A stretch of 32,741 nucleotides of DNA from an uncultured Gammaproteobacteria bacterium (GTDB lineage: Bacteria; Patescibacteriota; Patescibacteriia; Magasanikbacterales; UBA922): contig CAZRZS010000002.1 of assembly GCA_964604685.1 (NCBI GenBank), forward strand, positions 5,051 to 37,791. Reading direction: 5' to 3'. Below are positions 1,177-32,741 of the stretch, one piece after another; position 1 is the stretch's first letter; the number at the start of each line of letters is the position of its first letter. The position numbers and the translations under genes were made by a program. The notes under the pieces were generated by a model that did no database searches, was not told where the DNA came from, and was given only the letters and a program-made list of their open reading frames with translations.

Positions 1177-1758
1177 TTATTCGCCAAACCTCTTATACTC
1201 ATGAATCACATATTCTCTTCCGCCGAACCAGTGCTCAATCTCGTGCTTGGCTTCTTCAGCAGTTTCCGAGGCGTGAACAATGTTCATCACGGCTCGCTTT
1301 TCAGCGTTAGCAATGGCCGGAGAGTCATTGGAATAATCCCCGCGGATGGTGCCCATGTCCGCCAAATAAGGCAAAGTATTACCACAAATTTTACGCACCA
1401 TGTCAACCGCATGCACGCCTTCCACAACCAGCCGGATTAACGGAGCCGAGATCATATAATCAACCAGCCAGCCACGCACCATTTTGCCGATTTCCAAATC
1501 ACTGTCCGTGCCTAACTCTTTTTTCGCCTCAACGTCATATTTTTCATAAGTGGTAAGCGTCTTCTGGCCTAGACGGCGAATCCAGGTCTCATCTTTGGGA
1601 TAATGGTTGTCAATCTGCTCATGGTTGGGTTGGAACATTTCCAAAGCCACGACTTTCAAATCACGCTGTTCAAAACGACTAATTACTTCTCCAATTAATC
1701 CCTTCTTAACTCCGTCGGGCTTTATCATTACAAAGGTCTTTTCTTGTTTAAAATCCAT
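1177..1758 (-). CDS. ndk: Nucleoside diphosphate kinase, long form (193 aa)
   Basis: Has TFVMIKPDGV, GTIRGD and NIVHAS (catalytic His) motifs. An insertion of about 40 aa lies between the HY..K.. region and the LIRLVVEG strand, relative to canonical NDKs of about 140-150 aa. Confidence 0.92.
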   Translation of the reverse strand: MDFKQEKTFVMIKPDGVKKGLIGEVISRFEQRDLKVVALEMFQPNHEQIDNHYPKDETWIRRLGQKTLTTYEKYDVEAKKELGTDSDLEIGKMVRGWLVDYMISAPLIRLVVEGVHAVDMVRKICGNTLPYLADMGTIRGDYSNDSPAIANAEKRAVMNIVHASETAEEAKHEIEHWFGGREYVIHEYKRFGE

Positions 1759-1802
1759 ATATTTAAATATTATTTAAAAGTGGCCTCATTATATATTAAA
1801 AA

Positions 1803-4076
1803 TCAAAGTTTGTCAATCTCTTTTAAAAAACTCGTCCCCTCTTCTCTGACATATTCAACATCATCTTCATCATCCGACGGATCAGAAAATACTGTACCTC
1901 CGCCTATAGTATTCAAATCAATTAATTTTTTATCAATCTCATCCAAAAACATAGACGGACCTTGTAAATATCCGCCAAAACCGCCCATGAGTGGATAGGT
2001 AAGATGTAAATATTTTTTAGCCCGGGTGACTGCCACATAAAACAAACGGCGTTCTTCTTCTATTTCATGGCTACTCCTCACCCGTTCAATGGGAAATTGA
2101 CCTTGGGCCAAGTTTATGACAAAGACGGCGTCCCATTCCAAACCCTTGGCTTGATGGATAGTAGATAAAATCAACATTTCCTCTTTATTATATTCATTAT
2201 CTTGAACTTTTTTAGCATTGTAACTCTCGTGCAAACTAGCTTCAGCTAAAAACTGATTTAAATCCGGCTGGCGTTCGGCATACAAAGCCAATTGCTCTAA
2301 ATCTTGCAAACGTTCTCGATAATCTGGATATTCGTTTTCCAAATATTCTACGTATTTTGAATCCAAAATCTCCGCAATTAAATCACTCGGCTTCCCTCTC
2401 CTATGAGTGGAGGGCAGCCTGCCTGCCGGCAAGGCAGGGGTGTGGTCTGTCCGTTCCAAAACCCCCTCCTCACCTCCCCCTTGTAGGGGGAGGGAAATTA
2501 ATTTTTCATAAATCTGCAAAAAATCATTCCAACCCATTTGACCGCGAGCTGATAAATGCGAACCTAAATTAGCGAGGTCTTCAATATTGTCCAAATCTCT
2601 AACTTCCATGATAATCCTTTCAGCACTGACTGGGCCAATCCCCACTTGCATATTCAGCACCCGGCTCCAAGCCATTGCGTCAGCCAAATTATTTACAATT
2701 TTTAAATATGACAAAACATCTTTGATATGAGCACGTTCAAAAAAACGCAAACCACCGCGATAGTCATAGGGAATATCCCGCTTAGTCAATTCCATTTCTA
2801 AAGCTTGAGAGTGATAAGCGGCGCGAAAAAGCACAGACATCTTATTCATAGCCACACCTTCATCACGCAGTTCTAAAACACGGTCGGTTATAAACTGGGC
2901 TTCTTCCAAATTATCAGCAAAGGGATGGACTTCAGGTTTAATAAACTTTTCTTGCAAAGAAGAAAGATTTTTTTTGTACTGATTTAAATTATTAGCAATA
3001 ATATTATTGGCCAAATTTAAAATATCTGGAGTGGAGCGATAATTTGTTTCCAATTTAAAAATTTTAGCATTTTTATATTTTTTTTCAAAAGCTAAAATAT
3101 TTTGGATATCTGCCGCACGAAATGAATAGATGCTTTGGGCATCATCCCCGACTACTAACAAGTTTTGATGTTTTGAAGCTAATAAATCTATAATTGAAGC
3201 TTGAATTTTGTTAGTATCTTGATATTCGTCAACAAGAATATACTTAAATTGCTGGCTAAATTTATCTTTAATTTTAGGTGACTTAACTAAAAGTAAGTAG
3301 AGATTGACTAGCAAATCATCAAAATCCATGACATTGGCCTCAAGTTTTCTTTTTTGATAATCCTCGGCAATGCGTTTGATAACATCACCAATGGCTAGAA
3401 AATTGGGGTGCAGTAAATCCAAAGTATCTTCAATAGTAGTTTCAGCATTGCGCGCATAGGAGATGATTGCTTGCAAGACTTTGGGTGAAGGAAAACGTTT
3501 CTCTTTCCGATCAATCCCCTCCTGTTTTAAACAGAGCTTAAGTAAATCCAAACTGTCTTGGCTGTCTAAAATTGTAAATCCAGCACCAGAACTCGCTCCA
3601 CTCGTTTGGTGCTGGGCTGAATTATTTTTATAACCCAATAGATAGGCATACTGACAAAGAATTTTGTAGGCAATATGATGAAAAGTACCCGACCAAGGCA
3701 ATATTATCCCCCTCTTACCAATCACCGCCACAGCGGGACCCCGCCTCAAGGCGGTGGGAAGGGGCTCGGGGGGAGTTGCCGAGGTTCCATTTTCCCCCCC
3801 TTTAATAAAGGGAGGGTAGCCTGCCTGTCGGCAGACAGGGGGGAATTTTGGCAACAGTTTTTCTACTCTCTCAATCATTTCTTTGGCCGCTTTATTGGTA
3901 AATGTCACCAATAAAATATTTTCTGGACAGACACCTTGCTCTAATAAATAGGCCACGCGATAAGTAATGGTGCGCGTTTTGCCGCTCCCGGCTCCGGCCA
4001 AGACTAAACACGGGCCGTTTCCTTCAAAAACGACCCGCTGCTGTTCCAAATTTAAATCTTTTTGAAAATCAACCAT
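1803..4076 (-). CDS. uvrD: UvrD/PcrA-type superfamily 1 DNA helicase carrying three in-frame repeat insertions
   Basis: Walker A AGAGSGKT, TFTNKAAKEM, GTFHH, VDEYQDTN, VGDDAQSIYSFRAAD, ETNYRS and VAVTRAKK motifs appear in canonical order. GC-rich segments at about 3697-3850, 3580-3615 and 2391-2497 interrupt it without breaking the frame. Confidence 0.93.
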   Translation of the reverse strand: MVDFQKDLNLEQQRVVFEGNGPCLVLAGAGSGKTRTITYRVAYLLEQGVCPENILLVTFTNKAAKEMIERVEKLLPKFPPVCRQAGYPPFIKGGENGTSATPPEPLPTALRRGPAVAVIGKRGIILPWSGTFHHIAYKILCQYAYLLGYKNNSAQHQTSGASSGAGFTILDSQDSLDLLKLCLKQEGIDRKEKRFPSPKVLQAIISYARNAETTIEDTLDLLHPNFLAIGDVIKRIAEDYQKRKLEANVMDFDDLLVNLYLLLVKSPKIKDKFSQQFKYILVDEYQDTNKIQASIIDLLASKHQNLLVVGDDAQSIYSFRAADIQNILAFEKKYKNAKIFKLETNYRSTPDILNLANNIIANNLNQYKKNLSSLQEKFIKPEVHPFADNLEEAQFITDRVLELRDEGVAMNKMSVLFRAAYHSQALEMELTKRDIPYDYRGGLRFFERAHIKDVLSYLKIVNNLADAMAWSRVLNMQVGIGPVSAERIIMEVRDLDNIEDLANLGSHLSARGQMGWNDFLQIYEKLISLPLQGGGEEGVLERTDHTPALPAGRLPSTHRRGKPSDLIAEILDSKYVEYLENEYPDYRERLQDLEQLALYAERQPDLNQFLAEASLHESYNAKKVQDNEYNKEEMLILSTIHQAKGLEWDAVFVINLAQGQFPIERVRSSHEIEEERRLFYVAVTRAKKYLHLTYPLMGGFGGYLQGPSMFLDEIDKKLIDLNTIGGGTVFSDPSDDEDDVEYVREEGTSFLKEIDKL
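2409..2442 (-). repeat. Hairpin module B, copy in uvrD (site 2)
   Basis: Exact reverse complement of the 34-nt tgt copy. Confidence 0.9.
2456..2496 (-). repeat. Hairpin module C, uvrD copy (site 2)
   Basis: Reverse complement ttccctccccctacaagggggaggtgaggagggggttttgg aligns with tgt module C apart from a few substitutions. Confidence 0.85.
3580..3615 (-). repeat. Isolated 8-bp-stem hairpin inside uvrD
   Basis: ccagcacc (3580-3587) pairs with ggtgctgg (3608-3615). It encodes the extra residues QHQTSGASSGAG just before the FTILD motif. Confidence 0.55.
3727..3817 (-). repeat. GC-rich hairpin cluster in uvrD insertion site 1
   Basis: ccgcc-tcaa-ggcgg (3751-3764), ctcgg-N9-ccgag (3774-3792) and ccccccc-tttaataaa-gggaggg (3794-3817). 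It lies adjacent to the module B variant. Confidence 0.7.
3811..3843 (-). repeat. Hairpin module B variant, copy in uvrD (site 1)
   Basis: ggagggtagcctgcctgtcggcagacagggggg compared with ggagggcagcctgcctgccggcaaggcaggggtg. It is one nt shorter, so it is read in a different frame. Confidence 0.8.
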
Positions 4077-4103
4077 AGTCGCCTTATTTTACCATTAAAC
4101 TTC

Positions 4104-4970
4104 CTAATCCTCAACAACCAACACTACCCGCCTGCCCTCTTTCACGTTCCCATCGTTCCAATCATGAATGGCAAATAATAAATCCTGATAATAATAGGCA
4201 AAATTTTCTCCCCATTGGGTGCCAGGGTCATTGGTTATAAATTTCTCATCAGTATAACCGCGGATGATTAAAGCATGATATTCTGGCCCATCACCGCGAA
4301 AATACGGATTAGGCAAATCCTTGCCATGGGCTAAAACCAAGACTGGCTTGCCTGCAGTAATAAATTTTTTAATATCATCTATAATAGGATTTTCAATAAT
4401 TTTTAACCCCACCCTACCCTCCCCGGAACTTGTCCCGAGTTTCATCTCGGGAAGGGGAGGGGAAGGGAGGGGTTGCGCCAATTTTAGATACTCCTCCGCC
4501 ATTTGTTTCACTTTCTCCATCTCAATACTATTCCCCCACCCCTGCGCTTCTTCCCACTCCACCATTTTCAAAATTTCGTCACGAGAAAATAATGGACTTA
4601 GATTATAGTTTTTATAATAAGCGTCAAGCATTAAAACGGCCGCTTCTTCACAGGCATCTTGCCAGGGCTGTTCCCAATTTTTTTCCGGGGCTTGGGAGGT
4701 GAAGGGAACGGCGAGATTCACTGTGTCATTCCGAGCGAAATCCGAATGAAATGAGGATGTAGTCGAGGAATCCCTTTCAACCACTACACTAGTTTCTAAA
4801 TTTCCTAGTTTCTTAGTTTCTATATTATTTTCGTAGTTCGTAATCTCGCTTGTCCCGAGCGAAGTCGAGGAATCTTTCGTAGTTCGCACATAAATAAAAA
4901 TTGTCCCAAGCAAAAACAACCCGCTTAAAATAAGACAGGAGTAATTAAATATCTTGTATTCTTTCTTCAT
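4104..4970 (-). CDS. Membrane-anchored C39-like (YvpB/Peptidase_C39_2-type) cysteine peptidase
   Basis: N-terminal TM segment (CLILSGLFLLGTIFIYV). FTSQAPEKNWEQPWQDACEEAAVLMLDAY contains the Cys motif and HALIIRGY is the candidate His. It carries repeat modules in-frame. Confidence 0.75.
   Translation of the reverse strand: MKKEYKIFNYSCLILSGLFLLGTIFIYVRTTKDSSTSLGTSEITNYENNIETKKLGNLETSVVVERDSSTTSSFHSDFARNDTVNLAVPFTSQAPEKNWEQPWQDACEEAAVLMLDAYYKNYNLSPLFSRDEILKMVEWEEAQGWGNSIEMEKVKQMAEEYLKLAQPLPSPPLPEMKLGTSSGEGRVGLKIIENPIIDDIKKFITAGKPVLVLAHGKDLPNPYFRGDGPEYHALIIRGYTDEKFITNDPGTQWGENFAYYYQDLLFAIHDWNDGNVKEGRRVVLVVED
4417..4461 (+). repeat. Hairpin module A, copy in the peptidase gene (antisense to the gene)
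   Basis: Identical 45-nt string to 5384-5428. The minus-strand gene translates it as [15 protein letters not shown]. Confidence 0.9.
4725..4773 (-). repeat. Module E copy 1 (gtcattccgagcgaa...gtcgaggaatcc) in the peptidase gene
   Basis: Shares gtc..ccgagcgaa and gtcgaggaatc with copy 2 and has about 21 extra internal nt. It is translated as DSSTTSSFHSDFARND. Confidence 0.7.
4852..4874 (-). repeat. Module E copy 2 in the peptidase gene
   Basis: gtcccgagcgaagtcgaggaatc. It is flanked by the 12-nt direct repeat tttcgtagttcg (4829-4840 and 4875-4886). Confidence 0.7.
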
Positions 4971-4989
4971 ATCACCAGTGTATCAAGAA

Positions 4990-5018
4990 TTGATTTTTTT
5001 CGCAAAATACTCTAAACT
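4990..5018 (+). promoter_or_regulatory. Candidate tgt promoter (TTGATT-17-TAAACT) only 8 nt before the ATG
   Basis: TTGATT at 4990-4995, a 17-nt spacer and TAAACT at 5013-5018, with the ATG at 5027. No SD sequence is present. This implies a leaderless or nearly leaderless mRNA. Confidence 0.45.
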
Positions 5019-5020
5019 GA

Positions 5021-7094
<2,074 letters not shown>

Positions 7095-7104
<10 letters not shown>

Positions 7105-7122
7105 GCCGAAGCTCAGTTTTTT
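7095..7122. terminator. Bidirectional intrinsic terminator between convergent genes
   Basis: aaaaaa-CTGAGC-cgaa-GCTCAG-tttttt. The yhhQ stop codon lies in the 5' arm, and the minus-strand 71-aa ORF stop lies at the end of the T-run. Confidence 0.85.
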
Positions 7123-7336
7123 AATTCATTCCACCAAATTCTTTACCACCCGTCATCTGCCTCCATAATCTTTCTGCTTCTTCTCTATTTTTTGGGTTAG
7201 ACCTCTTTGATTGTTTTTCTCTTTTTTTAGCTTCAACTTCAAAACCTGAAGGATCAACTGATCTTAAACTACCTTTAGCACCTTCAGGTACCCCTCTTCT
7301 AACTGCCCCCTTATTATGCCAACCAATTACTGACAT
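7121..7336 (-). CDS. Small basic hypothetical protein (71 aa)
   Basis: ORF is bounded by terminators on both sides. It is Lys/Arg/Glu-rich and I recognise no family. Confidence 0.5.
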   Translation of the reverse strand: MSVIGWHNKGAVRRGVPEGAKGSLRSVDPSGFEVEAKKREKQSKRSNPKNREEAERLWRQMTGGKEFGGMN

Positions 7337-7380
7337 ATATTTATGGTTAATAATAAGTAATAAAAGTATAACATATTATT

Positions 7381-7409
7381 AAAAAAACCTCCAATAAGAA
7401 GGTTTTTTC
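7381..7409 (-). terminator. Intrinsic terminator closing the femAB-to-queA operon
   Basis: Minus strand reads aaaaaACCTTCttattGGAGGTttttttt. The stem contains a U-G pair that would be an A-C mismatch on the plus strand, which supports minus-strand function. Confidence 0.75.
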
Positions 7410-7418
7410 AATATCTGT

Positions 7419-7577
7419 TTAGGCTTCAGCTTCCTCATTAGTAGTTTCATCATCACTGCCAGCTGTTTCAGCAGGAGCTTCTTCACCACTTTCAGCTTCT
7501 GTTTCAGGAGCTGTAGTAGTAGCCTCTTCTTCGGTACCCTCATCAGTAACAGGGCCCATTGTTGTATCCTCATCCAT
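7419..7577 (-). CDS. Possible 52-aa highly acidic peptide (MDEDTTMGPVTDEGTEEEATTTAPETEAESGEEAPAETAGSDDETTNEEAEA)
   Basis: Hand translation of the minus strand; it falls below the ORF-track size cutoff. Its TAA stop lies 10 nt before the terminator hairpin, whereas the competing 64-aa frame reads through that hairpin. No SD sequence is present. Confidence 0.35.
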   Translation of the reverse strand: MDEDTTMGPVTDEGTEEEATTTAPETEAESGEEAPAETAGSDDETTNEEAEA

Positions 7578-7632
7578 AGAAAAGAAGATTAAGAATTAAC
7601 GGTCTATAGTTTATCACAGATTACTATTCTTG

Positions 7633-8703
7633 TCAAGATGTTATCAACATGCCATCCCCAAAGCTATAAAAACGATATTTTTCCTTTATTGCCTGCTGAT
7701 AGCAATGCAACATAAATTCCCTATTTCCCACAAAGGCAGAGACTAACATAAGCAGGGTGGATTTAGGCAAATGAAAATTAGTAATTAAGGCGTCAATGAT
7801 TTTAAATTGAAAACCTGGGGTAATAAACAAATTTATCTCGCCTTGATATGGTTCAAGTCTCTCGTCAGCATAGCCAGCCTGATGTGCCAGACCTTCCAAA
7901 GTACGCACAGTAGTTGTACCTACAACAATCACTCGTCTGCCTTCGCTCTTCGCCTGGTTTATAGCCATAGCTGTGCCAAAATTAAGCTCCACCCATTCAC
8001 TGTGCATCCGATGTTCTTCAATCTCTTCGCTTTTAACCGGCAAAAAAGTACCTAAACCCACATGCAAAGTAATTTCCGCTATTTCCACCCCCTTAGCTCG
8101 AATTTTCTCTATCAACTCTTTGGTAAAATGGAAACCAGCCGTGGGTGCGGCCACTGAACCTTCCTGCTTGGCATAGATAGTTTGATAATCAGCCAAATCT
8201 ACCGGCTGTTTTTTAATATATGGCGGTACAGGCACTTCGCCGCAGTTATTGGCTTTTTGTCGAACCACTTCATCATTATCTGAAAACTGAACTAAAATGG
8301 TGCCATCTTTTTCTTTCAACATAACATCGCAGTAAAAATCAGAAGCAAACTGCAGGCGTAGGCCATTTTGTACATGCCTACCGGGTTTAGCCAAAACTTG
8401 CCAAACCCCAAGGTTTTCCATCGGTCGAACTAAAAAGATTTCCACAGGCTTTCCATGTTCGCGCAATACCTCGCCTTCGGGAGTAATTAGCTGGCCATAT
8501 AACCGAGCGCGAAAAACTTTGGAATTGTTGCAAACTAATAAATCTCCGGTTTTTAGATAATCAAGGAAATCATAAAAATGACGGTGTTCCACCGTCTGAG
8601 TTGTTTTATTTACTACCATGAGGCGTGAGTGATCACGCGGCCATAGAGGCTCCTGGGCAATCAACTCTCTAGGTAGATTATAATCAAAATCTGCTGTTTT
8701 CAT
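7633..8703 (-). CDS. queA: S-adenosylmethionine:tRNA ribosyltransferase-isomerase
   Basis: N-terminus reads DFDYNLPRELIAQEPLWPRDHSRLMV. AAPTAGFHFT and GTTTVRTLE motifs are present, and the 356-aa length is typical. Confidence 0.92.
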   Translation of the reverse strand: MKTADFDYNLPRELIAQEPLWPRDHSRLMVVNKTTQTVEHRHFYDFLDYLKTGDLLVCNNSKVFRARLYGQLITPEGEVLREHGKPVEIFLVRPMENLGVWQVLAKPGRHVQNGLRLQFASDFYCDVMLKEKDGTILVQFSDNDEVVRQKANNCGEVPVPPYIKKQPVDLADYQTIYAKQEGSVAAPTAGFHFTKELIEKIRAKGVEIAEITLHVGLGTFLPVKSEEIEEHRMHSEWVELNFGTAMAINQAKSEGRRVIVVGTTTVRTLEGLAHQAGYADERLEPYQGEINLFITPGFQFKIIDALITNFHLPKSTLLMLVSAFVGNREFMLHCYQQAIKEKYRFYSFGDGMLITS

Positions 8704-9746
8704 AAATTTAAAAATTGCGCACGATTTCTATTATGGTTCTCTAAATTTTTAGCATATTTCACTTCACCTTCAGAAGTTGTCAGAAAATACCAGTCATTAT
8801 TTTTCTCTGGATAAATGGCCGCTTTGATTGATTCCAAGCTCGGATTGCAAATAGGTCCAAAAGGCAAGCCCGGATACTTATAGGTATTCCACGGTGAATT
8901 AAAATTACGCTCTTCTTGAGTAGTGAAAACATCACCAGTTTTACCTAAAGCATAGTGAACCGTGGAATCAGCTTGTAATGCCCAGTTCAAATCATAGCGG
9001 CGCCAAAAGATATCAGCCACCTTTTTCTTATCTTCCAACTCCTTCACTTCTTTTTCTAAAACAGATGCCATAGTTAAAACTTCATAAAATGTCCGCCCGC
9101 TTTTCTCCATGTCCTCCCACAGCTTATCTGTAATTTGATTCTCACGTTCTTGTAATAATCGCAAGATAATATCTGCGACTGTAGCATTTTTGTAAATGCG
9201 GTAGGTTTCTGGAGCTAAATAGCCTTCGTAGCTGGCAAACCATGGCTTATCTTCTAAAATTTTTAAATCTAAATCAATCTCTGGTGCAGACTCAGCCGCT
9301 AGCTTATAATTCACAGCCGGTAAACCCACATATTCAGTAATCTCTTCAGCTTGAAACCTGCCTTGACTTTCAAAATACATACTAATATCACGAATTGTCC
9401 AACCGGGAATAATCGTAATTGTGGCTTCACTTAAGCCAGGTTGACTGAGAGCCTTAGCCACGCGGGACAAAGTAATTGGCGCAACCACTTCAAACTCACC
9501 ATAATTTACTTTCTTATCCAAACCTTTGAAAATTAAATACTTTTTAAACAACCAGCTATTGCGGATAATTTGCTCCTCTTGCAAACGCGTAACTAAATCA
9601 CCCACTGACTCGCCTGACTTAACTTCAAAAACAACTTTATCCACGCCCTTCTGTGCTTCGGCTGTGTAGAGTTCCGAAAGAAAAAACCAGCCAGCAATAA
9701 CTAGGCAGGCAATAATAATCCCCAAAAGTATTTTGTTTAAATTCAT
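8700..9746 (-). CDS. mltG: Endolytic murein transglycosylase MltG (YceG-like)
   Basis: N-terminal TM segment, then ASVLEKE, ADSTVHYALG and NTYKYPGLPFGPICNPS motifs. It overlaps queA by 4 nt. Confidence 0.9.
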   Translation of the reverse strand: MNLNKILLGIIIACLVIAGWFFLSELYTAEAQKGVDKVVFEVKSGESVGDLVTRLQEEQIIRNSWLFKKYLIFKGLDKKVNYGEFEVVAPITLSRVAKALSQPGLSEATITIIPGWTIRDISMYFESQGRFQAEEITEYVGLPAVNYKLAAESAPEIDLDLKILEDKPWFASYEGYLAPETYRIYKNATVADIILRLLQERENQITDKLWEDMEKSGRTFYEVLTMASVLEKEVKELEDKKKVADIFWRRYDLNWALQADSTVHYALGKTGDVFTTQEERNFNSPWNTYKYPGLPFGPICNPSLESIKAAIYPEKNNDWYFLTTSEGEVKYAKNLENHNRNRAQFLNL

Positions 9747-13838: not shown

Positions 13839-14330
13839 CTATCTTACAACTACAATCTGATCACTATTTTCTGATTCACAAGCATATACTGAAATTGCAC
13901 CTGTCGTACCAACTGACAAAGTATAACCAGTATAATTAGCAGACCAAATACCTTGACCATTTGGACTTGTTGGTATAGCGCCAAGGTAACCAGCTGTTTG
14001 TAAACCGGATAAATCAACACAAGTTGTATCACCAGTTACGTTGGTGTCACAATAAGCATTCTGGTCATCACATCCTATTGCGGCCGTGCCAATCATATAA
14101 ACATTACCAGCGCTTAAAGCTTGTATTGTCGCTAAATTATAACCACCATTGTCCACTTGATATAAATTAATTGCATGGGACAATTCGCTGATTTCTTGCC
14201 AGCGTACAGAGTCGCGTGAATCCTGAAAACGCGTTAAAGGATCCAAAGCGACAAAGACCACGGCTGCCAAAATTGCAATAATGGCAATCACAATCAAAAG
14301 CTCAATGAGCGTAAAACCTTTGTGCCTCAT
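13839..14330 (-). CDS. Type IV pilin, major-pilin-sized paralogue 2 (163 aa)
   Basis: MRHKG|FTLIELLIVIAIIAILAAV is a class III signal with Glu at +5. The C-terminal half has four Cys and shares the C.DL.GL...GYLG..P..P motif with the other pilins. Confidence 0.9.
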   Translation of the reverse strand: MRHKGFTLIELLIVIAIIAILAAVVFVALDPLTRFQDSRDSVRWQEISELSHAINLYQVDNGGYNLATIQALSAGNVYMIGTAAIGCDDQNAYCDTNVTGDTTCVDLSGLQTAGYLGAIPTSPNGQGIWSANYTGYTLSVGTTGAISVYACESENSDQIVVVR

Positions 14331-14361
14331 AAAGTTTTGGATTAAAAAATAAAATTATTTT

Positions 14362-14859
14362 TTATCTTGAAACGGAAATAGCACCAGTATTTTCTGATTC
14401 ACAAGCCTGAATTGTAATAATGCCTGTACTCGCTTTCTTCAAAGTATAACCTGTTATTGTCTCATCCCAAGTAGCATTACCTGTTGGACTGACAGGCACC
14501 GAACCAAGATATCCTTGACTGGCTAGACCAGTTAAATCTACACAGTCTGTAGTATTAATAATAGCCACATCACAATTTCCAGCATTATAAGCAGTATTAC
14601 AAGCAGAAACTGCCGTACCAATCATATAGACAGTATCATTCACCAAATTGCTAATGGCCATTAAATAATATCCACCATTATCGATTTGATTAATTTTAAT
14701 CGCCGACAATAAAGCGGTGGTATCTTGCCAGCGTGAAGCATCACGTGCATCCTGAAAACGCGTTAAAGGATCTAAAGCTACAAAGACCACGGCTGCCAAA
14801 ATTGCGATAATGGCAATCACGATTAATAATTCAATTAAAGTAAAACCTTTTCGTTGCAT
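14362..14859 (-). CDS. Type IV pilin, major-pilin-sized paralogue 1 (165 aa)
   Basis: MQRKG|FTLIELLIVIAIIAILAAVVFVALDPLTRFQD. The first 35 or so residues are almost identical to the downstream paralogue. Confidence 0.9.
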   Translation of the reverse strand: MQRKGFTLIELLIVIAIIAILAAVVFVALDPLTRFQDARDASRWQDTTALLSAIKINQIDNGGYYLMAISNLVNDTVYMIGTAVSACNTAYNAGNCDVAIINTTDCVDLTGLASQGYLGSVPVSPTGNATWDETITGYTLKKASTGIITIQACESENTGAISVSR

Positions 14860-14870
14860 ATAATTTTTAC

Positions 14871-16208
14871 TTAAAAATTAAAATTGCTACTTGTAACAGT
14901 TACAGCTTCAGTGGATGAAGACTGGACATTAAAATTAAATTCGGGAATTTGTTCTAATTGTTGTTGAATCTGTAAAGGCACATCTCTTACCTCTTGACTA
15001 TGCTGCCAAAATAAATAAGCAACCAATAAACCTCCAACTATTATAACTAACAATAAAATAATTAACAAAAGACGTGTGTGAGTTTTCTGTGCTTCTTCCT
15101 CTTGGCCTGATATCTTTTCCTCATCAATCACTAAATTGGTTTTTTTAGAAAGAGGCTTTTCTTCTTTTAAATCTTTAAGTATGGGTATGCTAGGATCAGT
15201 ACTTTCCCAATGATTGTGTAAACCTCGCAGGCCCAAGCCAATTGCCTCTATATACTCCAAAGGGACCTTTACATCTAGAGATTTGGCATTGCCAATTTGC
15301 ACCGGTAATTTAACATTCTCTTCTAAATATTTATTCAAACCTTTTAACTGGCTAGTGCCGCCAATTAAAACTAACTTTTGCACTTCCATTCCAGTTTGCT
15401 CTTTAAAATACTCTACTAAAGTTATAATTTCCTTACTTATTGTACTTAATTCTTTTTCCAGAGCTTTTACCACCAGTTTACTCTTACTTTTCAAGCCATC
15501 TTTAATTTTAGCCGCTTCCGCTTTCTTTTCATCTAATTTAACGGCTCCGGCCACGGCCGTCGTCAAATTGTTGCCAGCTATATTTATCACTTCTTCATAA
15601 TGTAATCCATTTTTGTCAAACACTGCTAAATAAGTAGTTGTAGCGCCCAGATCTACTAGGCAAACCGGCTCTTTGGGCAAAGTAGAAAACAAATCTCGAA
15701 AACTTGCCAAAATTTCTACATCTAAAAACTGCACCTCAAATTTATTTTTCTTAAAAAATCTCAACCACTCCTTAACCACATCTTTACTGGCAGCTGCTAC
15801 TAAAACCTCTGTCCCATCCTTTTTTTCTTCTAAAACCCGATAATCATAAACTAAACCATCTTCTACTAGTGGAATATTCTTTACGACTTCAGTTTTAATT
15901 AACTCTTCTCTTGCTTTCTTGCTATGCGCCGACAAAATAAAATTTCGTAGATAGACCTGGGATTCGGGCAAAGCAAAAATTATTTTTCTACCAGTTATGG
16001 CTCTTGGCTTGGCCATCTTAAATAATTGCTTTAAAGCCTGAGACAGTTTAATTTCATCTTTTATTCTGCCACGCTCAACTATACCAGCCTCCAATTTCAT
16101 CCGGCCTAAATTTTTTACCTTCACATGCAAACCAAAACCCTTCAACTCTGCCACCTCCATAGTCTGGTCAGCAATGTCCAAGCCAATGACTTTCTTAGTT
16201 AAAAACAT
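14871..16208 (-). CDS. pilM: PilM actin-like ATPase fused to a PilN-like transmembrane tail
   Basis: VIGLDIADQTMEVAEL, VDLGATTTYLAVF and LIGGTSQLKGL are sugar-kinase/actin-fold motifs. A C-terminal TM segment reads LLLIILLLVIIVGGLLVAYLFW. I prefer the ATG at 16208 (MFLTKK) over the track's TTG at 16232. Confidence 0.85.
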   Translation of the reverse strand: MFLTKKVIGLDIADQTMEVAELKGFGLHVKVKNLGRMKLEAGIVERGRIKDEIKLSQALKQLFKMAKPRAITGRKIIFALPESQVYLRNFILSAHSKKAREELIKTEVVKNIPLVEDGLVYDYRVLEEKKDGTEVLVAAASKDVVKEWLRFFKKNKFEVQFLDVEILASFRDLFSTLPKEPVCLVDLGATTTYLAVFDKNGLHYEEVINIAGNNLTTAVAGAVKLDEKKAEAAKIKDGLKSKSKLVVKALEKELSTISKEIITLVEYFKEQTGMEVQKLVLIGGTSQLKGLNKYLEENVKLPVQIGNAKSLDVKVPLEYIEAIGLGLRGLHNHWESTDPSIPILKDLKEEKPLSKKTNLVIDEEKISGQEEEAQKTHTRLLLIILLLVIIVGGLLVAYLFWQHSQEVRDVPLQIQQQLEQIPEFNFNVQSSSTEAVTVTSSNFNF

Positions 16209-16210
16209 AG

Positions 16211-16603
16211 TTAATTTTCTTCTTCCTGCCAAGAATTAAGGACAATAGTATCACCGTTTAAAGTGGCCTTGACTAACAATTTGTTATTATATTCACCCAC
16301 ACTGGCCGCTACTGCTATTGCTCGTTCAAAACCATTACTAGTTACTGATATTATACAGGAATTTTGGCCAATGTTCAAAGTCTCGCCGGAATAGTTTTCG
16401 TCTAAATACAAACGGCGTAAAGCTTCTTCGGCACAACCTTCAGCCAAAGCCTGTGCTTCATTACCTTTTTGTGAAGTCCAACCCATATCTAAATCACCCA
16501 AACCTAAAATAATAGCCGAAAAAGCCATTAACAAAACTGCCGTACTGACAATGACAATAGTCAGCAAAGCAACCATACCTCGTTTGTCTTTTACAACTAT
16601 CAT
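16211..16603 (-). CDS. PilX-like accessory pilus protein (130 aa)
   Basis: KRGMVALLTIVIVSTAVLLMAF hydrophobic N-terminus followed by AQALAEGCAEEALRRL. The same helix motif opens the 1116-aa protein. There is no Glu at +5. Confidence 0.6.
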   Translation of the reverse strand: MIVVKDKRGMVALLTIVIVSTAVLLMAFSAIILGLGDLDMGWTSQKGNEAQALAEGCAEEALRRLYLDENYSGETLNIGQNSCIISVTSNGFERAIAVAASVGEYNNKLLVKATLNGDTIVLNSWQEEEN

Positions 16604-16604
16604 A

Positions 16605-17117
16605 CTATTGTCTTAAGCTCACAGCTGTCTGCAGGCTCTGGTCATAGCTAAACTCAACATCACCGTCAAAATTATTAAACTCCACAGTTAAAGCAACTCC
16701 AATATTTTCTTTACTAGCTCCGCCTGTCAAATTGGTAAAAACTAAATTTGTCACCCTGACTTCATCACTCGTTATGGGTATAGCGCCACTTGTACCTTGA
16801 TTGATTTGTAATACCCCATCATCAACCGAAAGGTCAATAACTGTAGGATTTAAACTAATAGAAGCCATACTTAAAGACAAAACACCTGGATCTAAAGCAA
16901 AAGTTGAACTATCTAAATTAACCCCATTGGCCGCTTCTATCTTTTGACTGATTAAATCTAAAGCTACTCGTGCATTCGCCTGGACCTCCTGAACTACATA
17001 GGTTTTATTACGTGAATCAGAAATATGTAAAGCAAAACTGACAAATGCCAACATCACACCGCCAATTATGGTAATATATATCAAAGTTTCAATTAAGGTA
17101 AAGCCACGCTTATTCAT
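16605..17117 (-). CDS. Minor pseudopilin (PilW/GspJ-like, 170 aa)
   Basis: MNKRG|FTLIETLIYITIIGGVMLAF prepilin signal with Glu at +5. Confidence 0.8.
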   Translation of the reverse strand: MNKRGFTLIETLIYITIIGGVMLAFVSFALHISDSRNKTYVVQEVQANARVALDLISQKIEAANGVNLDSSTFALDPGVLSLSMASISLNPTVIDLSVDDGVLQINQGTSGAIPITSDEVRVTNLVFTNLTGGASKENIGVALTVEFNNFDGDVEFSYDQSLQTAVSLRQ

Positions 17118-17120
17118 ATT

Positions 17121-18059
17121 TTATTTGCTAAGCTGGATAATTTCCCCTCCTTCTGCGCCACAAGCTATGACCTGTAGTTGCCCGGCGGCCTGCTTTTTAA
17201 CTACATAATATGTTTGTTCAGCACTGCCTACCGAAGGATCAAAAGGTATAGTGGATAATTTACTACTTAAGGCCCCTGATAAATCTAAACAAGCAGTTTG
17301 TGTCTGCTGACCAGTACCTAAATTAATCTTAATAAAATAATCACCATTGTCATTAGTCCAACCAGTCTGTGAACCATCACCATTCAAACCACTGCGATAT
17401 TCAGGATCAGGACCGGTAGGACCAACTTCATCCATCAAAAACTTAACCGTGCCAGAACCATTATACAAAAGCAATTGCACAAAAAAATAATCCCCCAAAC
17501 TATTCTTATTAATATTATAACTATTGCTATACCAAGTGTAGTTACTGGTAGTGCTATCAGTCCTGATATTGGCAGCATCAACAAAATCATAATCAGTATA
17601 AGAAGAAGCATTGCCAATACGCAAACGTAACTGACCACTACAGCTGCCATCACAATCTAAAACTGCCGAAACTGTTAAAACGGAAAAATCACTCACTGCT
17701 GAAGCATTAAACCAATTACGCACTGTATAGGTGTTGTTAGAGTAATACTTTAAAGTCTGATTGGAATTGTGATAAGCAATGTCCATATTGCTTTCACCAC
17801 CACATCTCACATCACAACCACTGCCAGCCGTGCCTAACATTCTTAAACTGGTATCAATACCAGCTGGTAAAATCCCCCGCTGGTCAACTTGCTCTAAACG
17901 GATGGCATCAATAATAGAGTTAATATCATTCCAACGCCGAGAATTACGGGCGTCCTGAAAACGTTGCAAAGGATTAAGGGCAACAAAGACCACTGCCGCT
18001 AAAACAGCGATAATCGCAATCACGATTAATAATTCAATCAAAGTAAAACCTTTTTTCAT
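17121..18059 (-). CDS. Type IV pilin with an inserted central domain of about 190 aa (312 aa)
   Basis: MKKG|FTLIELLIVIAIIAVLAAVVFVALNPLQRFQD. The C-terminus CLDLSG...IPFDPS......TYYV......G.L.V.ACGAEGGE matches the C-terminus of the neighbouring 482-aa pilin. Confidence 0.88.
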   Translation of the reverse strand: MKKGFTLIELLIVIAIIAVLAAVVFVALNPLQRFQDARNSRRWNDINSIIDAIRLEQVDQRGILPAGIDTSLRMLGTAGSGCDVRCGGESNMDIAYHNSNQTLKYYSNNTYTVRNWFNASAVSDFSVLTVSAVLDCDGSCSGQLRLRIGNASSYTDYDFVDAANIRTDSTTSNYTWYSNSYNINKNSLGDYFFVQLLLYNGSGTVKFLMDEVGPTGPDPEYRSGLNGDGSQTGWTNDNGDYFIKINLGTGQQTQTACLDLSGALSSKLSTIPFDPSVGSAEQTYYVVKKQAAGQLQVIACGAEGGEIIQLSK

Positions 18060-18060
18060 A

Positions 18061-19509
18061 TTATCTTGTTACTTTTATTTCCTCCCCTTCTGCGGCACAA
18101 GCTTGGACATTAACTTGCCCGGTTTCATCGCGCTGCAAAGCATAATATGTTTTATTACTATCACCCAGAGAAGGATCAAAAGGTATTTGAGGTAAATGAG
18201 AGACTAAAATAGAACCTAGGTCAAGACAACTATCCACCAAAACATCACGACCCCCGCCAGCACTGGCTATTCCAACTGTCACACTTTTCAATATCGGACT
18301 ATAAACTGCCCGATCAGTATTAAAATTCACTTGATATTGAAAATATTGATTATCAGCCAAATTAGTTAAATTCAAAGCAGGCAAGCCAATTGTAGAATTA
18401 TTTAACTCTGTGTAATAGGTAGCAGCTGTACCATCAGGTCCGATAAATGATTCACCACTACAGGCATTGTCAGCACAAGAGCGGACTTGAAAACGTAGAC
18501 GATTAGCCCCCCGGCGATAATGAGACAAAACTTCATCTGGTGAAAGTGCACGGTTATAAATAGCGACCTCATCCATACTGCCGTGAAAATAACTATTTTG
18601 TTTACCTAATTGCACAGGTAGATTGTTGATATTAATATCCCAACTAACTGGTGAATCATCGATTAAGACCCCGTTGGCATATAAAGAAACTTTGTCATTT
18701 GCCTCAAACACACCAACTAGATGTGTCCATCCTGTACCTAAATAATATGGGCCAGAAGCAGCATAACCAGTATTATTGGCATTTCTGACGAAAAAATAGA
18801 CTGACCTAATTTTATGTAAACTCAAAGAAAAAGAACCACCTTTAGCATAACCTATACCCTTGGTTATTATGCCAGCATAAGAAACAGTTGGATTAGTTAA
18901 CTTTTTTACCCAAGCTTCAACAGTAAAATCACCAGACAAGTTTAGACTTGAAGCATTACCCGCATCTATGTAATCACTACTGCCAGCAAAACCTATCGCT
19001 CTATTGAATTTACCAGTTTGTCCGTAAAGACTACCATTGTATGTCCCTGCATTACCACTACCAGAACTATCAGTAATCGTCCCGGAAGTTTCATTTAAGT
19101 GGTAAAGTAACACATTGCCACTCATGTTGGCATTACCAGAGTTATAACTAGACTCACTTGCCTGATTATTAGGCAATTCTTTATAACTAGGTTGACTTGG
19201 ACTCCAATATAAAGTAGTCCAAGCACTCAAGGTGCTGGCAGAAAATATCTGCGAGGTATAGGTGCCACTTGTACCTGAAGCTAATTTAACTCCAGATTCT
19301 GTTCCGATCCACTGTGTATTAATATAACTGCCAGCATTTTGGTAAAGCCGTATAGCGCCGGCAATAGCATCCACATCTGACCAACGTTGGACATTACGCG
19401 TCTCCTTAAAACGCTGCAGAGGATTAAGAGCAACAAAAACCACTGCCGCTAAAACAGCAATAATCGCAATCACGATTAATAATTCAATTAAAGTAAAGCC
19501 TTTTTTCAT
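18061..19509 (-). CDS. Type IV pilin carrying a LamG/concanavalin-like lectin-fold domain (482 aa)
   Basis: Same prepilin N-terminus as the 312-aa pilin. The central region LYHLNETSGT..DSSG.GN.GT......G..G.A..F.G..DYI.....SL.LSGDFTVEAWV...SLYANGVL....FHGSMDEVAIYNRALS..EV is the Laminin_G_3 pattern (about nt 18505-19122). Confidence 0.88.
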   Translation of the reverse strand: MKKGFTLIELLIVIAIIAVLAAVVFVALNPLQRFKETRNVQRWSDVDAIAGAIRLYQNAGSYINTQWIGTESGVKLASGTSGTYTSQIFSASTLSAWTTLYWSPSQPSYKELPNNQASESSYNSGNANMSGNVLLYHLNETSGTITDSSGSGNAGTYNGSLYGQTGKFNRAIGFAGSSDYIDAGNASSLNLSGDFTVEAWVKKLTNPTVSYAGIITKGIGYAKGGSFSLSLHKIRSVYFFVRNANNTGYAASGPYYLGTGWTHLVGVFEANDKVSLYANGVLIDDSPVSWDININNLPVQLGKQNSYFHGSMDEVAIYNRALSPDEVLSHYRRGANRLRFQVRSCADNACSGESFIGPDGTAATYYTELNNSTIGLPALNLTNLADNQYFQYQVNFNTDRAVYSPILKSVTVGIASAGGGRDVLVDSCLDLGSILVSHLPQIPFDPSLGDSNKTYYALQRDETGQVNVQACAAEGEEIKVTR

Positions 19510-19512
19510 AAG

Positions 19513-29769: not shown

Positions 29770-32208
29770 TTATTTTTTCTCCATAACTAAACCAATCACT
29801 TCGTCCGTTTCCAAAGTCGTATTAAATTCTGCTCCATTGGTGGCTAAAACCATGTTAGTCCCAGTTTGCCAGACTGGCTGCCAACCAACTGGATAAATAA
29901 TCTGCGAAGTAAAATCATAATTAATGCCAGATTGTTTTTGCACAACCAGACTATACCGTGAACTCTGTTTCTTACTGCCAGTCAATACAGTCTGCCATTT
30001 CTCAACATTACTCTCTGCTTCAATTATATTCACTTTAAAAGGCAATTTATAGGTAAAATAAATGCTACCTGACTCCCCTGGTGGCACAATCATCCAATTA
30101 CCAAAGACAGTTTTGTCAAACTCTTCTGTGATACGCGTACCCGTATTGGCATGAATAGCCACCTCTTTTTCCAAATTATTTAAATCCTTATCCTCCTCAT
30201 ACCAATTCTCAGGTACATGAAAAACAGCTTCCGGCGGATAAACAAAACCACCAGCTTCTATTAATTCTGAACCTCTGGGGACATAAACGCGAACATAATG
30301 GATATTGTCAGAACCATAAAACAATTCGCCGGGTATGCCTAAATGTTTTTTATGTATGACCACTGTATCTACAACCGAACCATCTGGCTGTACTGCCGCC
30401 TGATGCTCTACAACTTGCTTAATCCGCGCATCTGACTTTTGGCCTTGCAAATTCGTGCCCACCACGGCCAAATAATCCTGCTGAATACTGGTGGAAAATA
30501 ATTCACCTGTCCAACCAAAACTACGAAATCTCTTTTGTGTTAAATCATCATTAAAATATACTTGAATTTCTTTTTGTTGCAAAGCTTCATGCAATTCAGC
30601 CAACAAACGAATGTCATTATCAGCATTAAGATTTTTCATTTGCGCTAAAAATTGCCCAGCCAAATCTGCTAAAACCTTCTTAGGTTGGTTCTCGGCTTTG
30701 TCATAATTAACTTCCACTTCATATTGTAATCTGGCCACGGCATCTTCACTGGCAATTTCTAAATCTTGTTCTTCACTGACTACCGGACCCAGTATTTTCA
30801 ATAAACGTTCCAAAACTGAAGCATTAATGGCAATCACGCCATCTACTGTCGTCCCGCGGGCCTGTTCATAAAACCACTCAATCTTTTGGGCTGAAGCTAC
30901 AAAATCGGGAAACCAATTAGCATCCTGAAATTCCCAGCGGGCATTAGTTAATTGCAAAGGCAGAGGTGGTTTGAGATAAGTGTCTAACTGTCCTTGAAGG
31001 TCATAAGAGCCACCGCCAGGAATGTCTAAATTCATCAATTTGCCTTTTTGCAGATCCAAGACAGCAAAACTGCCCATAAAACCACCCGTGGCGCGCAATT
31101 CACTATTGTTTTGAAAGACTAATAAATATCTCTTAAATTGGTCGGCGCCAAAGACTGAGTCCATGGCTCGAACCAGCTCTACCAAATCAGTCATATCATT
31201 AATTAAAGCAGCAAAAAGGAGTTTAAATTCAGAAAAAGACTGCTGGTATTCCACTGGCACAGCAGTTTGGTCCACGGCCGACAATTGTTCTAAAGCTTCC
31301 TGGTATTGGGGAATAGCACTATGCAAATGATTGGCTAGAACTTCAAATCTATCTGTTAAAGCTAGCTCGGCTTGTTCTGATTCGCTAATGCCTTTGACTA
31401 GATAAGTATTGCCGAGTGCCAAATGATGCCCTGCTGTCAATAAATGCTGACGGCTATTAACCTGTTTGCCCACGATTGGTAATAAACCTACGGCATAGAC
31501 CAAAGCGCCATGCTCTTTTTCTAAAATAGTTTCAGCCTTGCTAAAAGAATCTAAAGCTGAATTTAAATCATATTGAGCTTGGGTTAAATTTGATTGGAAA
31601 GCGGCTACTGTAGAAGACTGTAATGATAAAAAGGCATTAGTACTTTCCTCTACCACTTGAGCGTTGGCATCTTTAAGCTTGTTATAATAACCAATGGTAG
31701 GAAAAGGCAGCAAGGCGATTAATAAGATTACAATGGTGCTATATGCCAAACGATTAAGAGTAAACACTTTAATGATATTCTGTCTAGTTTGTGCTAAATT
31801 ATCTCGAACATTCCCCAAATATGCTGACAACTGTAATTTTGGTAATTTAATAGCCGGCCATTTAATCGTGGGTAATTTTATTTGCCGCTTGGTTTTCAAC
31901 TTCTTAACCTTAAATTCACGCTGAGATACGGCTAAATTAGCTGCTCTAACCATTTCACCTAAATTTACAGTCACTCTTTTTTCTCTGGCTATTGGTTTTT
32001 CAGTAAAAACTTGAACACCTTGCCAAACACTTGATTCTGGTTCATTTCTTAAATTAACAACATACGGTGATTGAGTATATTTTTGCGTAACTTTAACTAA
32101 CACCGATTTTCTCTTTGGTGCTTGTTTTTGTTGCCTGAAGATTGGACATTTTCTCTTGTCATGCCCTGTTTTTCTGCAGACAGAACATTGGCGTTTTGTC
32201 TTTTTCAT
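29770..32208 (-). CDS. DUF4012-like membrane-anchored protein with an N-terminal CCHC zinc knuckle (812 aa)
   Basis: Core NNSELRATGGFMGSFAVLDL.KG is the DUF4012 signature as I recall it. A TM segment lies near aa 154-175. The N-terminus reads C-SV-C-RKTG-H-DKRK-C. Confidence 0.8.
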   Translation of the reverse strand: MKKTKRQCSVCRKTGHDKRKCPIFRQQKQAPKRKSVLVKVTQKYTQSPYVVNLRNEPESSVWQGVQVFTEKPIAREKRVTVNLGEMVRAANLAVSQREFKVKKLKTKRQIKLPTIKWPAIKLPKLQLSAYLGNVRDNLAQTRQNIIKVFTLNRLAYSTIVILLIALLPFPTIGYYNKLKDANAQVVEESTNAFLSLQSSTVAAFQSNLTQAQYDLNSALDSFSKAETILEKEHGALVYAVGLLPIVGKQVNSRQHLLTAGHHLALGNTYLVKGISESEQAELALTDRFEVLANHLHSAIPQYQEALEQLSAVDQTAVPVEYQQSFSEFKLLFAALINDMTDLVELVRAMDSVFGADQFKRYLLVFQNNSELRATGGFMGSFAVLDLQKGKLMNLDIPGGGSYDLQGQLDTYLKPPLPLQLTNARWEFQDANWFPDFVASAQKIEWFYEQARGTTVDGVIAINASVLERLLKILGPVVSEEQDLEIASEDAVARLQYEVEVNYDKAENQPKKVLADLAGQFLAQMKNLNADNDIRLLAELHEALQQKEIQVYFNDDLTQKRFRSFGWTGELFSTSIQQDYLAVVGTNLQGQKSDARIKQVVEHQAAVQPDGSVVDTVVIHKKHLGIPGELFYGSDNIHYVRVYVPRGSELIEAGGFVYPPEAVFHVPENWYEEDKDLNNLEKEVAIHANTGTRITEEFDKTVFGNWMIVPPGESGSIYFTYKLPFKVNIIEAESNVEKWQTVLTGSKKQSSRYSLVVQKQSGINYDFTSQIIYPVGWQPVWQTGTNMVLATNGAEFNTTLETDEVIGLVMEKK

Positions 32209-32342: not shown

Positions 32343-32741
32343 TTATCGCCTATACACTACCAACGTTTCTCTGGCCAATTTCTCTCCTGAATATCGCTTT
32401 AATTCCTCTGGCGCTTTTATACTCAAATCATATCTGACATCTTCATTTGTTAAACCAGTCTGAATAACTTCAGCCATCTGCTCAAAATTTTCCGGATCAA
32501 AATATATGGCAGCTTCACCGAGAATTTCCGGCAAACATGAACTGTTGGAAGAGGCCACAGGCACACCATAGGTCATAGCTTCTAAAGGAGGCAGGCCAAA
32601 ACCTTCATACAAACTAGGAAAAACATACAACTTCGCTTGTTTATACAATCCCACTAATTCCTCATCAGAAACAAAGTCAGTGAACACAACGTTTCCTCCC
32701 CTTCCCGAGATGAAACTCGGGACAAGTTCCGGGGAGGGCAG
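32343..32741 (-). CDS. GT4-family glycosyltransferase, C-terminal part; the 5' end runs off the window through a repeat module
   Basis: FPSLYEGFGLPPLEAMTYGVPV is the GT-B/GT4 EX7E region. The frame stays open upstream of the track's GTG start (32687) for all 18 remaining codons ([18 protein letters not shown]). Confidence 0.85.
   Translation of the reverse strand: MPSPELVPSFISGRGGNVVFTDFVSDEELVGLYKQAKLYVFPSLYEGFGLPPLEAMTYGVPVASSNSSCLPEILGEAAIYFDPENFEQMAEVIQTGLTNEDVRYDLSIKAPEELKRYSGEKLARETLVVYRR
32695..32738 (-). repeat. Hairpin module A, copy in the glycosyltransferase gene
   Basis: Reverse complement of module A. It is followed at the window edge by cag, which reverse-complements to ctg, the same module B junction (ggctgccctcc) seen in tgt. 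Confidence 0.88.

Follow-up and report, generated by a model that had tools for sequence, protein, structure and literature searches.

The window analyzed here, a 32,741-nt stretch of DNA, ends inside a glycosyltransferase (GT) gene on the minus strand. A 114-codon open reading frame (ORF) with a GTG start at 32687 is listed at this end, and the last bases of the window, directly upstream of it, are a copy of a GC-rich repeat termed module A. This raises the question of whether the GTG is a genuine start or whether the gene reads through the repeat and past the window edge. The reading that we hold with high confidence is that a GT4 gene of Candidatus Magasanikbacteria (Patescibacteria/CPR) runs past the edge and carries, in a loop of its C-terminal domain, a translated, in-frame and modular hairpin repeat that resembles Rickettsia palindromic elements (RPEs) and MITE-type elements. 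The features at this end of the window are as follows.

32343..32741, minus strand: 3' part of a GT4 glycosyltransferase gene, 132 codons plus stop, running off the window; PF00534; 57–70% identity to 11 orthologues
32343..32741, minus strand: coverage of the GT fragment; the C-terminal Rossmann domain is represented by its second half, in which the EGFGLPPLEAM (E-x7-E) motif lies
32692..32741, minus strand: module A copy in the GT gene, cut by the window edge; GC-rich two-tier hairpin; codons 32741–32694 give 16 residues in the GT phase
32685..32699, minus strand: start-like site, with GGAGG at 32699–32695, a 7-nt spacer and GTG at 32687–32685
29770..32208, minus strand: DUF4012 gene, directly downstream of the GT gene and used as the synteny anchor for orthologous loci

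Translation of 32343–32741 on the minus strand gave a frame that is stop-free to the window edge and ends in VVYRR*. The fragment consists of 16 residues encoded by module A, followed by NVVFTDFVSDEELVGLYKQAKLYVFPSLYEGFGLPPLEAM...VVYRR*. Pfam analysis matched it to Glycos_transf_1 (PF00534) with a score of 77.6 bits against a cut-off (gathering threshold) of 26.4 bits, and fragment residues 16–111 corresponded to profile positions 73–170 of 172. Approximately 72 profile positions are missing immediately upstream of module A. The E-x7-E motif is present (EGFGLPPLEAM), and neither E46 nor E54 varies among 11 aligned orthologues; in the part after the element, every orthologue-invariant column is kept, the motif included. 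The PF00534 match and the E-x7-E motif identify the host gene as a GT4 glycosyltransferase. The best match in a protein search with the fragment showed only 71% identity, a scan of metagenome DNA with 35 nt of unique GT sequence yielded 0 matches, and solved GT4 structures compared at the insertion site gave one weak match, 7qsg. For the DUF4012 neighbour, an exact-protein look-up returned no record and a protein search with its N-terminal 300 aa returned no identical protein.

The DUF4012 query retrieved 80 loci, mostly labelled Candidatus Magasanikbacteria or Patescibacteria, with identities of up to 59%, which identifies the lineage. A GT match was located directly upstream of DUF4012 in approximately 60 of the 80 loci, and most tblastn alignments at these loci begin at query residue 16–18, just past the element. 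The orthologous GT ORFs that were extracted (n = 21) measured 360–406 aa, and Pfam analysis of two of them (L030 and L008) demonstrated both Glyco_transf_4 and Glycos_transf_1. Judged from this comparison, the GT gene, a cell-envelope glycosyltransferase, almost certainly continues past the window edge. The approximately 260 codons beyond the edge would encode the N-domain (Glyco_transf_4) together with the initial third of the C-domain.

Homologues of approximately 157 aa were also abundant in the databases, and these are C-halves of GT4 genes split at the inter-domain linker. Their large number is explained by the occurrence of GT4 as two ORFs, as in L087. At L087:2541–3471 (JGI Ga0366832_1000001), and also in L088, both from another Patescibacteria lineage, the GT4 homologue is present as two ORFs; those of L087 (2541–3020 and 3001–3471) overlap by 20 nt, the first encoding the N-domain (159 aa) and the second the C-domain (156 aa). 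The arrangement may reflect a genuinely split gene or a frameshift, whether programmed or not. The C-halves of such split genes begin with KPYxLYVGNxYPHKNL.

The repeat at the window edge is present in two further copies in the window. Positions 32692–32741 are an inverted copy of 5381–5430 (50 nt, 98%) and of 4414–4460 (47 nt, 98%), which lie in the tgt gene and in a C39-like peptidase gene, respectively. The 44-nt core of module A, CCCTCCCCGGAACTTGTCCCGAGTTTCATCTCGGGAAGGGGAGG, was found exactly at 4417, at 5384 and, on the minus strand, at 32695 (32695–32738), that is, three times in 32.7 kb, against 0.00 copies expected by chance in 100 dinucleotide-preserving shuffles. Module A is predicted to fold with an outer stem of CCCTCCCC/GGGGAGGG and an inner stem of CCCGAG/CTCGGG (−25.2 kcal/mol, z −2.9). 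The copy in the C39 gene is flanked by terminal inverted repeats, AACCCCACCC...GGGAGGGGTT, and a copy in a metagenome contig, L081, by AACCCCACCCC...GAGGGGTT in the same orientation. These termini pair as an outer stem in the predicted fold, and the C39 copy folded with its termini reached −45.9 kcal/mol (z −4.0). The three bases before module A are CTG in the GT and tgt copies and cta in the C39 and L081 copies. Module B adjoins module A in two of the three other A copies, and it likely precedes module A in the GT gene too. The sequences at the element junctions, and a peptide across one of them, are given below.

GT gene, junction: GGGGAGG followed by AAACGTTGTG
tgt, junction: GGGGAGGGAAAATAAG
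C39-like peptidase gene, junction: GGGGAGGGGAAGGG
Tryptic peptide spanning the predicted element/GT junction: GGNVVFTDFVSDEELVGLYK

Module A is one of several modules, all of them strongly GC-rich in a background genome of approximately 38% GC. The other modules and the element sites outside the GT gene are listed here.

Module B: CCTGCC..GGCAGG hairpin
Modules C and D: CCTCCCC(C)-loop-(G)GGGGAGG hairpins
2394..2500, minus strand: element site in the UvrD/PcrA helicase gene, made up of module C, module B and a D-like hairpin and encoding 34 residues; the module C phase differs from that in tgt
3716..3844, minus strand: second GC-rich hairpin cluster in the UvrD gene, with a B-like hairpin, PPVCRQAGYPPFIKGG
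4405..4480, plus strand: module A site in the C39-like peptidase gene, bounded by its terminal inverted repeats and read antisense as 23 residues
5347..5557, plus strand: composite B-A-C-D-C insert in tgt, approximately 71 extra residues, between residues 112 and 114 of Z. mobilis TGT
6100..6180, plus strand: second hairpin insert in tgt, CCCCCCTATCAGGGGGG and CCTCCCCTAAAAGGGGAGG, approximately 26 extra residues compared with the solved TGT, between residues 294 and 300

The module order is B-A-C-D-C in tgt; in the helicase gene, C is followed by B and then by a D-like hairpin, and module A stands alone in the C39-like peptidase gene. Hairpins of the form CCTCCCC-N3-7-GGGGAGG occurred five times in the window, against 0 expected. 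All three host genes are complete with their inserts: the UvrD/PcrA helicase gene (1803–4076, minus strand, 757 aa), the C39-like peptidase gene (4104–4970, minus strand, 288 aa) and the Tgt ORF (5027–6433, plus strand, 468 aa). Each of the six element sites found in the window is intragenic and in frame. Apart from the GT gene, UvrD and Tgt each contain two intragenic sites, and C39 and the L081 GT4 one each; at all of these, the host frame is kept and free of stops. A protein search with the 74-aa Tgt insert peptide gave no candidate, Rfam analysis of the window found four tRNAs and no family for the element, and Tandem Repeats Finder reported nothing.

Other repeats and a possible further insertion were also observed in the window. 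The tgt insert contains a 63-nt direct duplication (5419–5481 and 5494–5556) that is 98% identical, with a spacing of 75 nt from start to start. In the nucleoside diphosphate kinase gene (1177–1758, minus strand), the Pfam match falls into two stretches, with residues 98–182 corresponding to profile positions 60–134, which suggests an extra middle segment that is not GC-rich. A direct repeat of approximately 148 nt is present in four copies (14181, 14710, 17913 and 19363; 68–84% identical) within 13839–19510. The copies are located at the 5' ends of successive genes on the minus strand, one or more of which have an N_methyl prepilin motif, and the genes adjoin PilM, PilB-like (T2SSE) and PilC-like (T2SSF) genes. 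The gene content suggests that 13839–19510 is a type IV pilus cluster with paralogous pilins.

The same module DNA is read in different ways in different genes. Module A is read in the sense direction in tgt and the GT gene, giving a 15-residue peptide, and antisense in the C39-like peptidase gene, giving another 15-residue peptide. Module C is read as 13 residues in tgt and in a different phase, as SLPLQGGGEEGVL, in uvrD. Because modules A and C are used on both strands and in several phases, the element is a repeat at the DNA level and not a protein domain. A duplicated protein domain was accordingly rejected as an explanation. An intein or intron was also rejected: the element falls far short of the required size, lacks conserved splicing motifs and occurs in several phases and on both strands.

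Several claims of an earlier note on this DNA bear on the GT copy. It had stated that 16 GT residues are identical to the module A peptide in Tgt, which agrees with the Tgt translation and with the 50-nt, 98% DNA copy. It had also taken the last three bases for the B–A junction of tgt, and CTG on the minus strand does match ctgccctcc at 5381–5389. That a fourth gene carries the element in frame is borne out at the downstream junction, where the GT copy is in phase exactly as in tgt. The note had further relied on the lack of a stop codon up to the edge. The open frame is real, but the absence of a stop in the last 54 bases is not in itself evidence for read-through, because none of the three sense frames of module A contains a stop. 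Of its six frames, five are open, and module B is open in six of six; for comparison, a given frame is open in approximately 40% of random 48-nt windows.

The GTG at 32687–32685 (minus strand) is the codon for the second V of NVVF, and the GGAGG located 7 nt before it belongs to module A. The 114-aa ORF was listed from this codon because the ORF listing omits ORFs that run off the source. Gene starts in the window were ATG in 25 of the 25 genes checked, and an SD-like motif was absent from the 25 nt upstream of 23 of these 25 genes and had a typical spacing in only one. A GTG preceded by the element's own GGAGG is therefore atypical for this window. Moreover, the 114-aa product is shorter than any complete homologue and lacks strands that the shortest complete homologues keep. 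On these grounds, the GTG is judged to be an internal valine codon and its start an edge artefact, as the earlier note had proposed; the Pfam truncation and the full-length syntenic orthologues support this as well as the start-codon and SD statistics. The GTG would resemble a start only through the cut of the window and the mimicry of a Shine–Dalgarno box by the GGGGAGG of the element. In annotation, the feature should be recorded as a partial CDS of a GT4 enzyme of roughly 390–410 aa, and no 114-aa protein should be called from the GTG. It was also observed that the leaders of the window genes are AT-rich and mostly without SD-like motifs, whereas GGAGG and CCTCC abound in the intragenic repeat modules.

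The GTG could still be used if the element had broken the GT gene, leaving either a pseudogene or a split gene, the C-terminal part of which would be expressed from 32687 via the GGAGG of module A. We regard this as improbable. The position of GGAGG relative to an in-frame GTG fits such expression, two-ORF GT4 genes do exist in other Patescibacteria (L087), and the upstream continuation of the GT gene lies outside the window. However, the L087 genes are split at the inter-domain linker and their C-halves keep KPYxLYVGNxYPHKNL...LVL, which would be missing from the 114-aa product; the latter would begin partway through the C-terminal Rossmann domain, no earlier than profile position 73 of 172. 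The uniform ATG starts and the scarcity of SD-like motifs argue against initiation at this GTG, and the host frames are kept by all other element copies. Furthermore, no signs of decay were seen downstream, where the identity to orthologues is 57–70% and all invariant residues are retained.

The preferred reading, a continuous GT4 gene with an in-frame insert, also agrees with the location of the element. Alignment of the fragment with GT4 enzymes had been proposed in the earlier note as a check, and the alignment with 11 full-length orthologues (57–70% identity) left the invariant columns intact and placed the element in the loop between QLVLVGKxNYFYxxL and NVVFTDFVSD. This loop is variable in length, with 0–30 extra residues in the orthologues; it contains a 99-nt palindrome in L006 and an AT-rich palindrome in L009. 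As read from the alignment, module A in the GT gene occupies what is probably a surface-type, tolerant loop of the C-terminal Rossmann domain. The GT insert is likewise taken to be a true insertion, in that most of the approximately 60 orthologues align only past the element and the loop is length-variable.

The inserts in the other genes were compared with independent assemblies. A contig of ENA assembly ERZ27293347 covers 1749–9238 of the window and a contig of JGI metagenome 3300025021 covers 1776–5132, with one SNP each. The 757-aa helicase and the 288-aa peptidase are identical in both contigs, inserts included (helicase: L085 and L086). The 468-aa Tgt of the ENA contig (L085) differs only at 5462 (G/A), inside module C and within the 63-nt duplication, and this is the only SNP over 7.5 kb. 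These results demonstrate that the inserts in uvrD, the C39 gene and tgt are real and are reproduced by independent assemblies, so that in-frame copies are present in three complete genes. None of the same-organism contigs (L082–L086) reaches the GT gene. Three of them (L082–L084, from ENA, JGI and Logan) all end within 12 bases of each other, at 30519–30530 inside DUF4012, and the window reads through this position; strain variation and a coverage drop are possibilities for the shared end.

The GT copy thus stands outside all independent contigs found, unlike the uvrD, C39 and tgt copies, and its position is at a contig-like end, the least reliable part of an assembly. The window stops in a repeat with at least three copies, which is typical of a repeat-induced contig end and gives the window end the look of such a break. 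It could be argued from this that the terminal 50 bases are an assembly artefact, in which the contig end ran into a repeat from elsewhere and the real GT gene is free of the element. We consider this less probable still than a broken gene. The GT junction, GGGGAGG followed by its own host sequence, is unlike the junctions of the tgt and C39 copies, the point of insertion coincides exactly with the length-variable loop of the orthologues and is in a frame-preserving phase, and the other copies of this organism are real in independent assemblies.

Least probable of all is that the hairpin element is transcribed and not translated, being excised from the mRNA or bypassed by the ribosome in the style of byp or T4 gene 60: the element is predicted to form stable GC-rich hairpins, yeast mitochondrial GC clusters can be bypassed in translation (PMC8811140) and CPR rRNA genes carry intervening sequences (PMC7143001), but every intragenic copy is in frame and stop-free, which bypass or excision would not require, inspection by eye showed neither a take-off/landing codon pair nor a stop downstream of a take-off site, and no Rfam family matched. 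Since the frame is conserved at every intragenic site, we infer instead that the inserts are translated, and module A in the GT gene would be translated as a loop of at least 16 residues.

Copies of the element were also sought in other genomes. A scan of metagenome contigs with a 33-nt core of module A gave L081 (Ga0066637_10003841) as the sole match, which is a lower bound of at least one, as the collection was not exhaustive and missed Ga0210017_1027442, which holds the A core. The A-B element of L081 is 98.8% identical to the tgt copy over 81 nt (80/81). Its host is a complete 404-aa GT4, in whose N-terminal domain it is read in frame and antisense, and the contig is syntenic with the region upstream of the GT gene in relatives. 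At the corresponding site, 6 of 14 orthologues have no extra residues and the others have unrelated inserts. This copy raises the possibility that the element is mobile between lineages. Module A was absent from the 80 related loci, where only B-like and D-like pieces were found; D-like hairpins in other Magasanikbacteria loci were located both within long ORFs and outside them.

The last 1.8 kb of the L081 contig (8300–10081) has a G + C content of approximately 50%, compared with approximately 39% elsewhere in the contig, and contains odd ORFs, two of which have a ...GSRDH.G.VPRT.W..GKF.VW.Y.PD... motif. This terminal part may be foreign DNA or a chimeric join.

Unrelated palindromic inserts, all in frame, were observed at the same two loops in the orthologous GT4 genes L006:8621–9811, L030:5109–6374, L008:3462–4730 and L005:3128–4507. 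The insert peptides include CHCEE...EIAS(S) in L030, PSTPLRFAQDD in L008 and RLRSGQAPSKDP in L005. By comparison of these genes, the two GT4 loops appear to be insertion hot spots across the phylum that have been struck repeatedly by different palindromic elements.

For the window itself, these observations are consistent with the element being one of a family of hairpin modules whose terminal inverted repeats are of the AACCCCACCCC...GGGGTGGGGTT type. The modules would spread or recombine at the DNA level, and they would persist in genes only where their length and phase keep the frame and where the site is a tolerant loop, helped by their stop-free frames. The GT finding provides an annotation correction and a fourth host gene for the module element. 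One small CPR genome would thus tolerate repeat insertions, by inference translated, in at least four unrelated genes, three of which encode core enzymes.

A broader proposal, on which we find the case evenly balanced, is that Magasanikbacteria, and perhaps the wider CPR, harbour undescribed, very short GC-rich mosaic hairpin elements with CCTCCCC/GGGGAGG stems and AACCCCACCCC-type termini. Open in most frames and translated, such elements would recurrently colonise the same surface loops of essential enzymes (Tgt, UvrD and GT4s) and act as an RPE-like engine of protein-length variation in ultra-small genomes. No literature on such elements in CPR/Patescibacteria was found in the searchable library, which is absence of evidence only. 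If general, these elements would be a source of contig breaks in CPR metagenome assemblies and of spurious gene starts and "hypothetical" peptides, and would offer a natural experiment on the enzyme loops that accept insertions.

The host gene resembles other GT4 enzymes (GT-B fold, retaining; PF00534/PF13439) in its PF00534 match above threshold and its E-x7-E motif, and its syntenic orthologues have both domains. It differs in that the loop preceding the third strand of its C-domain holds an insert derived from the repeat, and its N-terminal domain would lie outside the window. The element itself was compared with several known classes. REP and BIME elements are extragenic by definition and are linked to RAYT transposases. 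The window modules share with REP/BIME and MITE-type elements (REP, ERIC, Correia and BOX) the arrangement of hairpin modules in mosaics and the terminal inverted repeats, AACCCCNCCC...GGGNGGGGTT, and copies in related genomes lie both inside and outside ORFs. Terminal inverted repeats as in MITEs are present on the C39 and L081 copies. No consistent flanking target-site duplication was seen by eye at the C39, tgt and L081 copies, and no transposase was noted among the subset of window ORFs scanned. Membership in REP/BIME was rejected, as six of six window sites are intragenic and in frame. The element was not assigned to byp or gene 60-like elements either, as all copies keep the frame without stops in the host phase.

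Yeast mitochondrial GC clusters are found in frame in var1 and shuffle into composites, and byp elements are bypassed in Magnusiomyces (PMC8811140). The window modules are likewise short GC-rich palindromes in an AT-rich genome that merge and shuffle and that change protein length when located in frame in coding regions. In contrast, GC clusters are organellar, eukaryotic and mostly intergenic, and some are bypassed and not translated. AG/TAG target-site duplications have been described for GC clusters, whereas no clear target duplication was seen for the window modules.

RPEs are known as in-frame insertions in unrelated genes (Ogata et al., 2000, as reviewed in PMC10969869), and each is described as carrying an ORF for a conserved peptide within approximately 100–150 bp (PMC10969869). 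The window modules are also dispersed, multi-copy palindromes, with three exact 44-nt copies, five hairpins and stable predicted folds. Like RPEs, they lie in frame in unrelated housekeeping genes, adding a peptide and leaving the host ORF intact, and in the GT gene this was tested at the downstream junction, which is in phase. Both occur in small AT-rich host genomes. The window modules differ in size, at approximately 20–50 nt with composites of 75–210 nt, and in being GC-rich, with CCTCCCC/GGGGAGG stems, and arranged in mosaic order, in several phases and on both strands. Given the difference in phylum (Patescibacteria) and in composition, a sequence relationship is not expected, and the likeness to RPEs is one of elements that work alike rather than one of membership.
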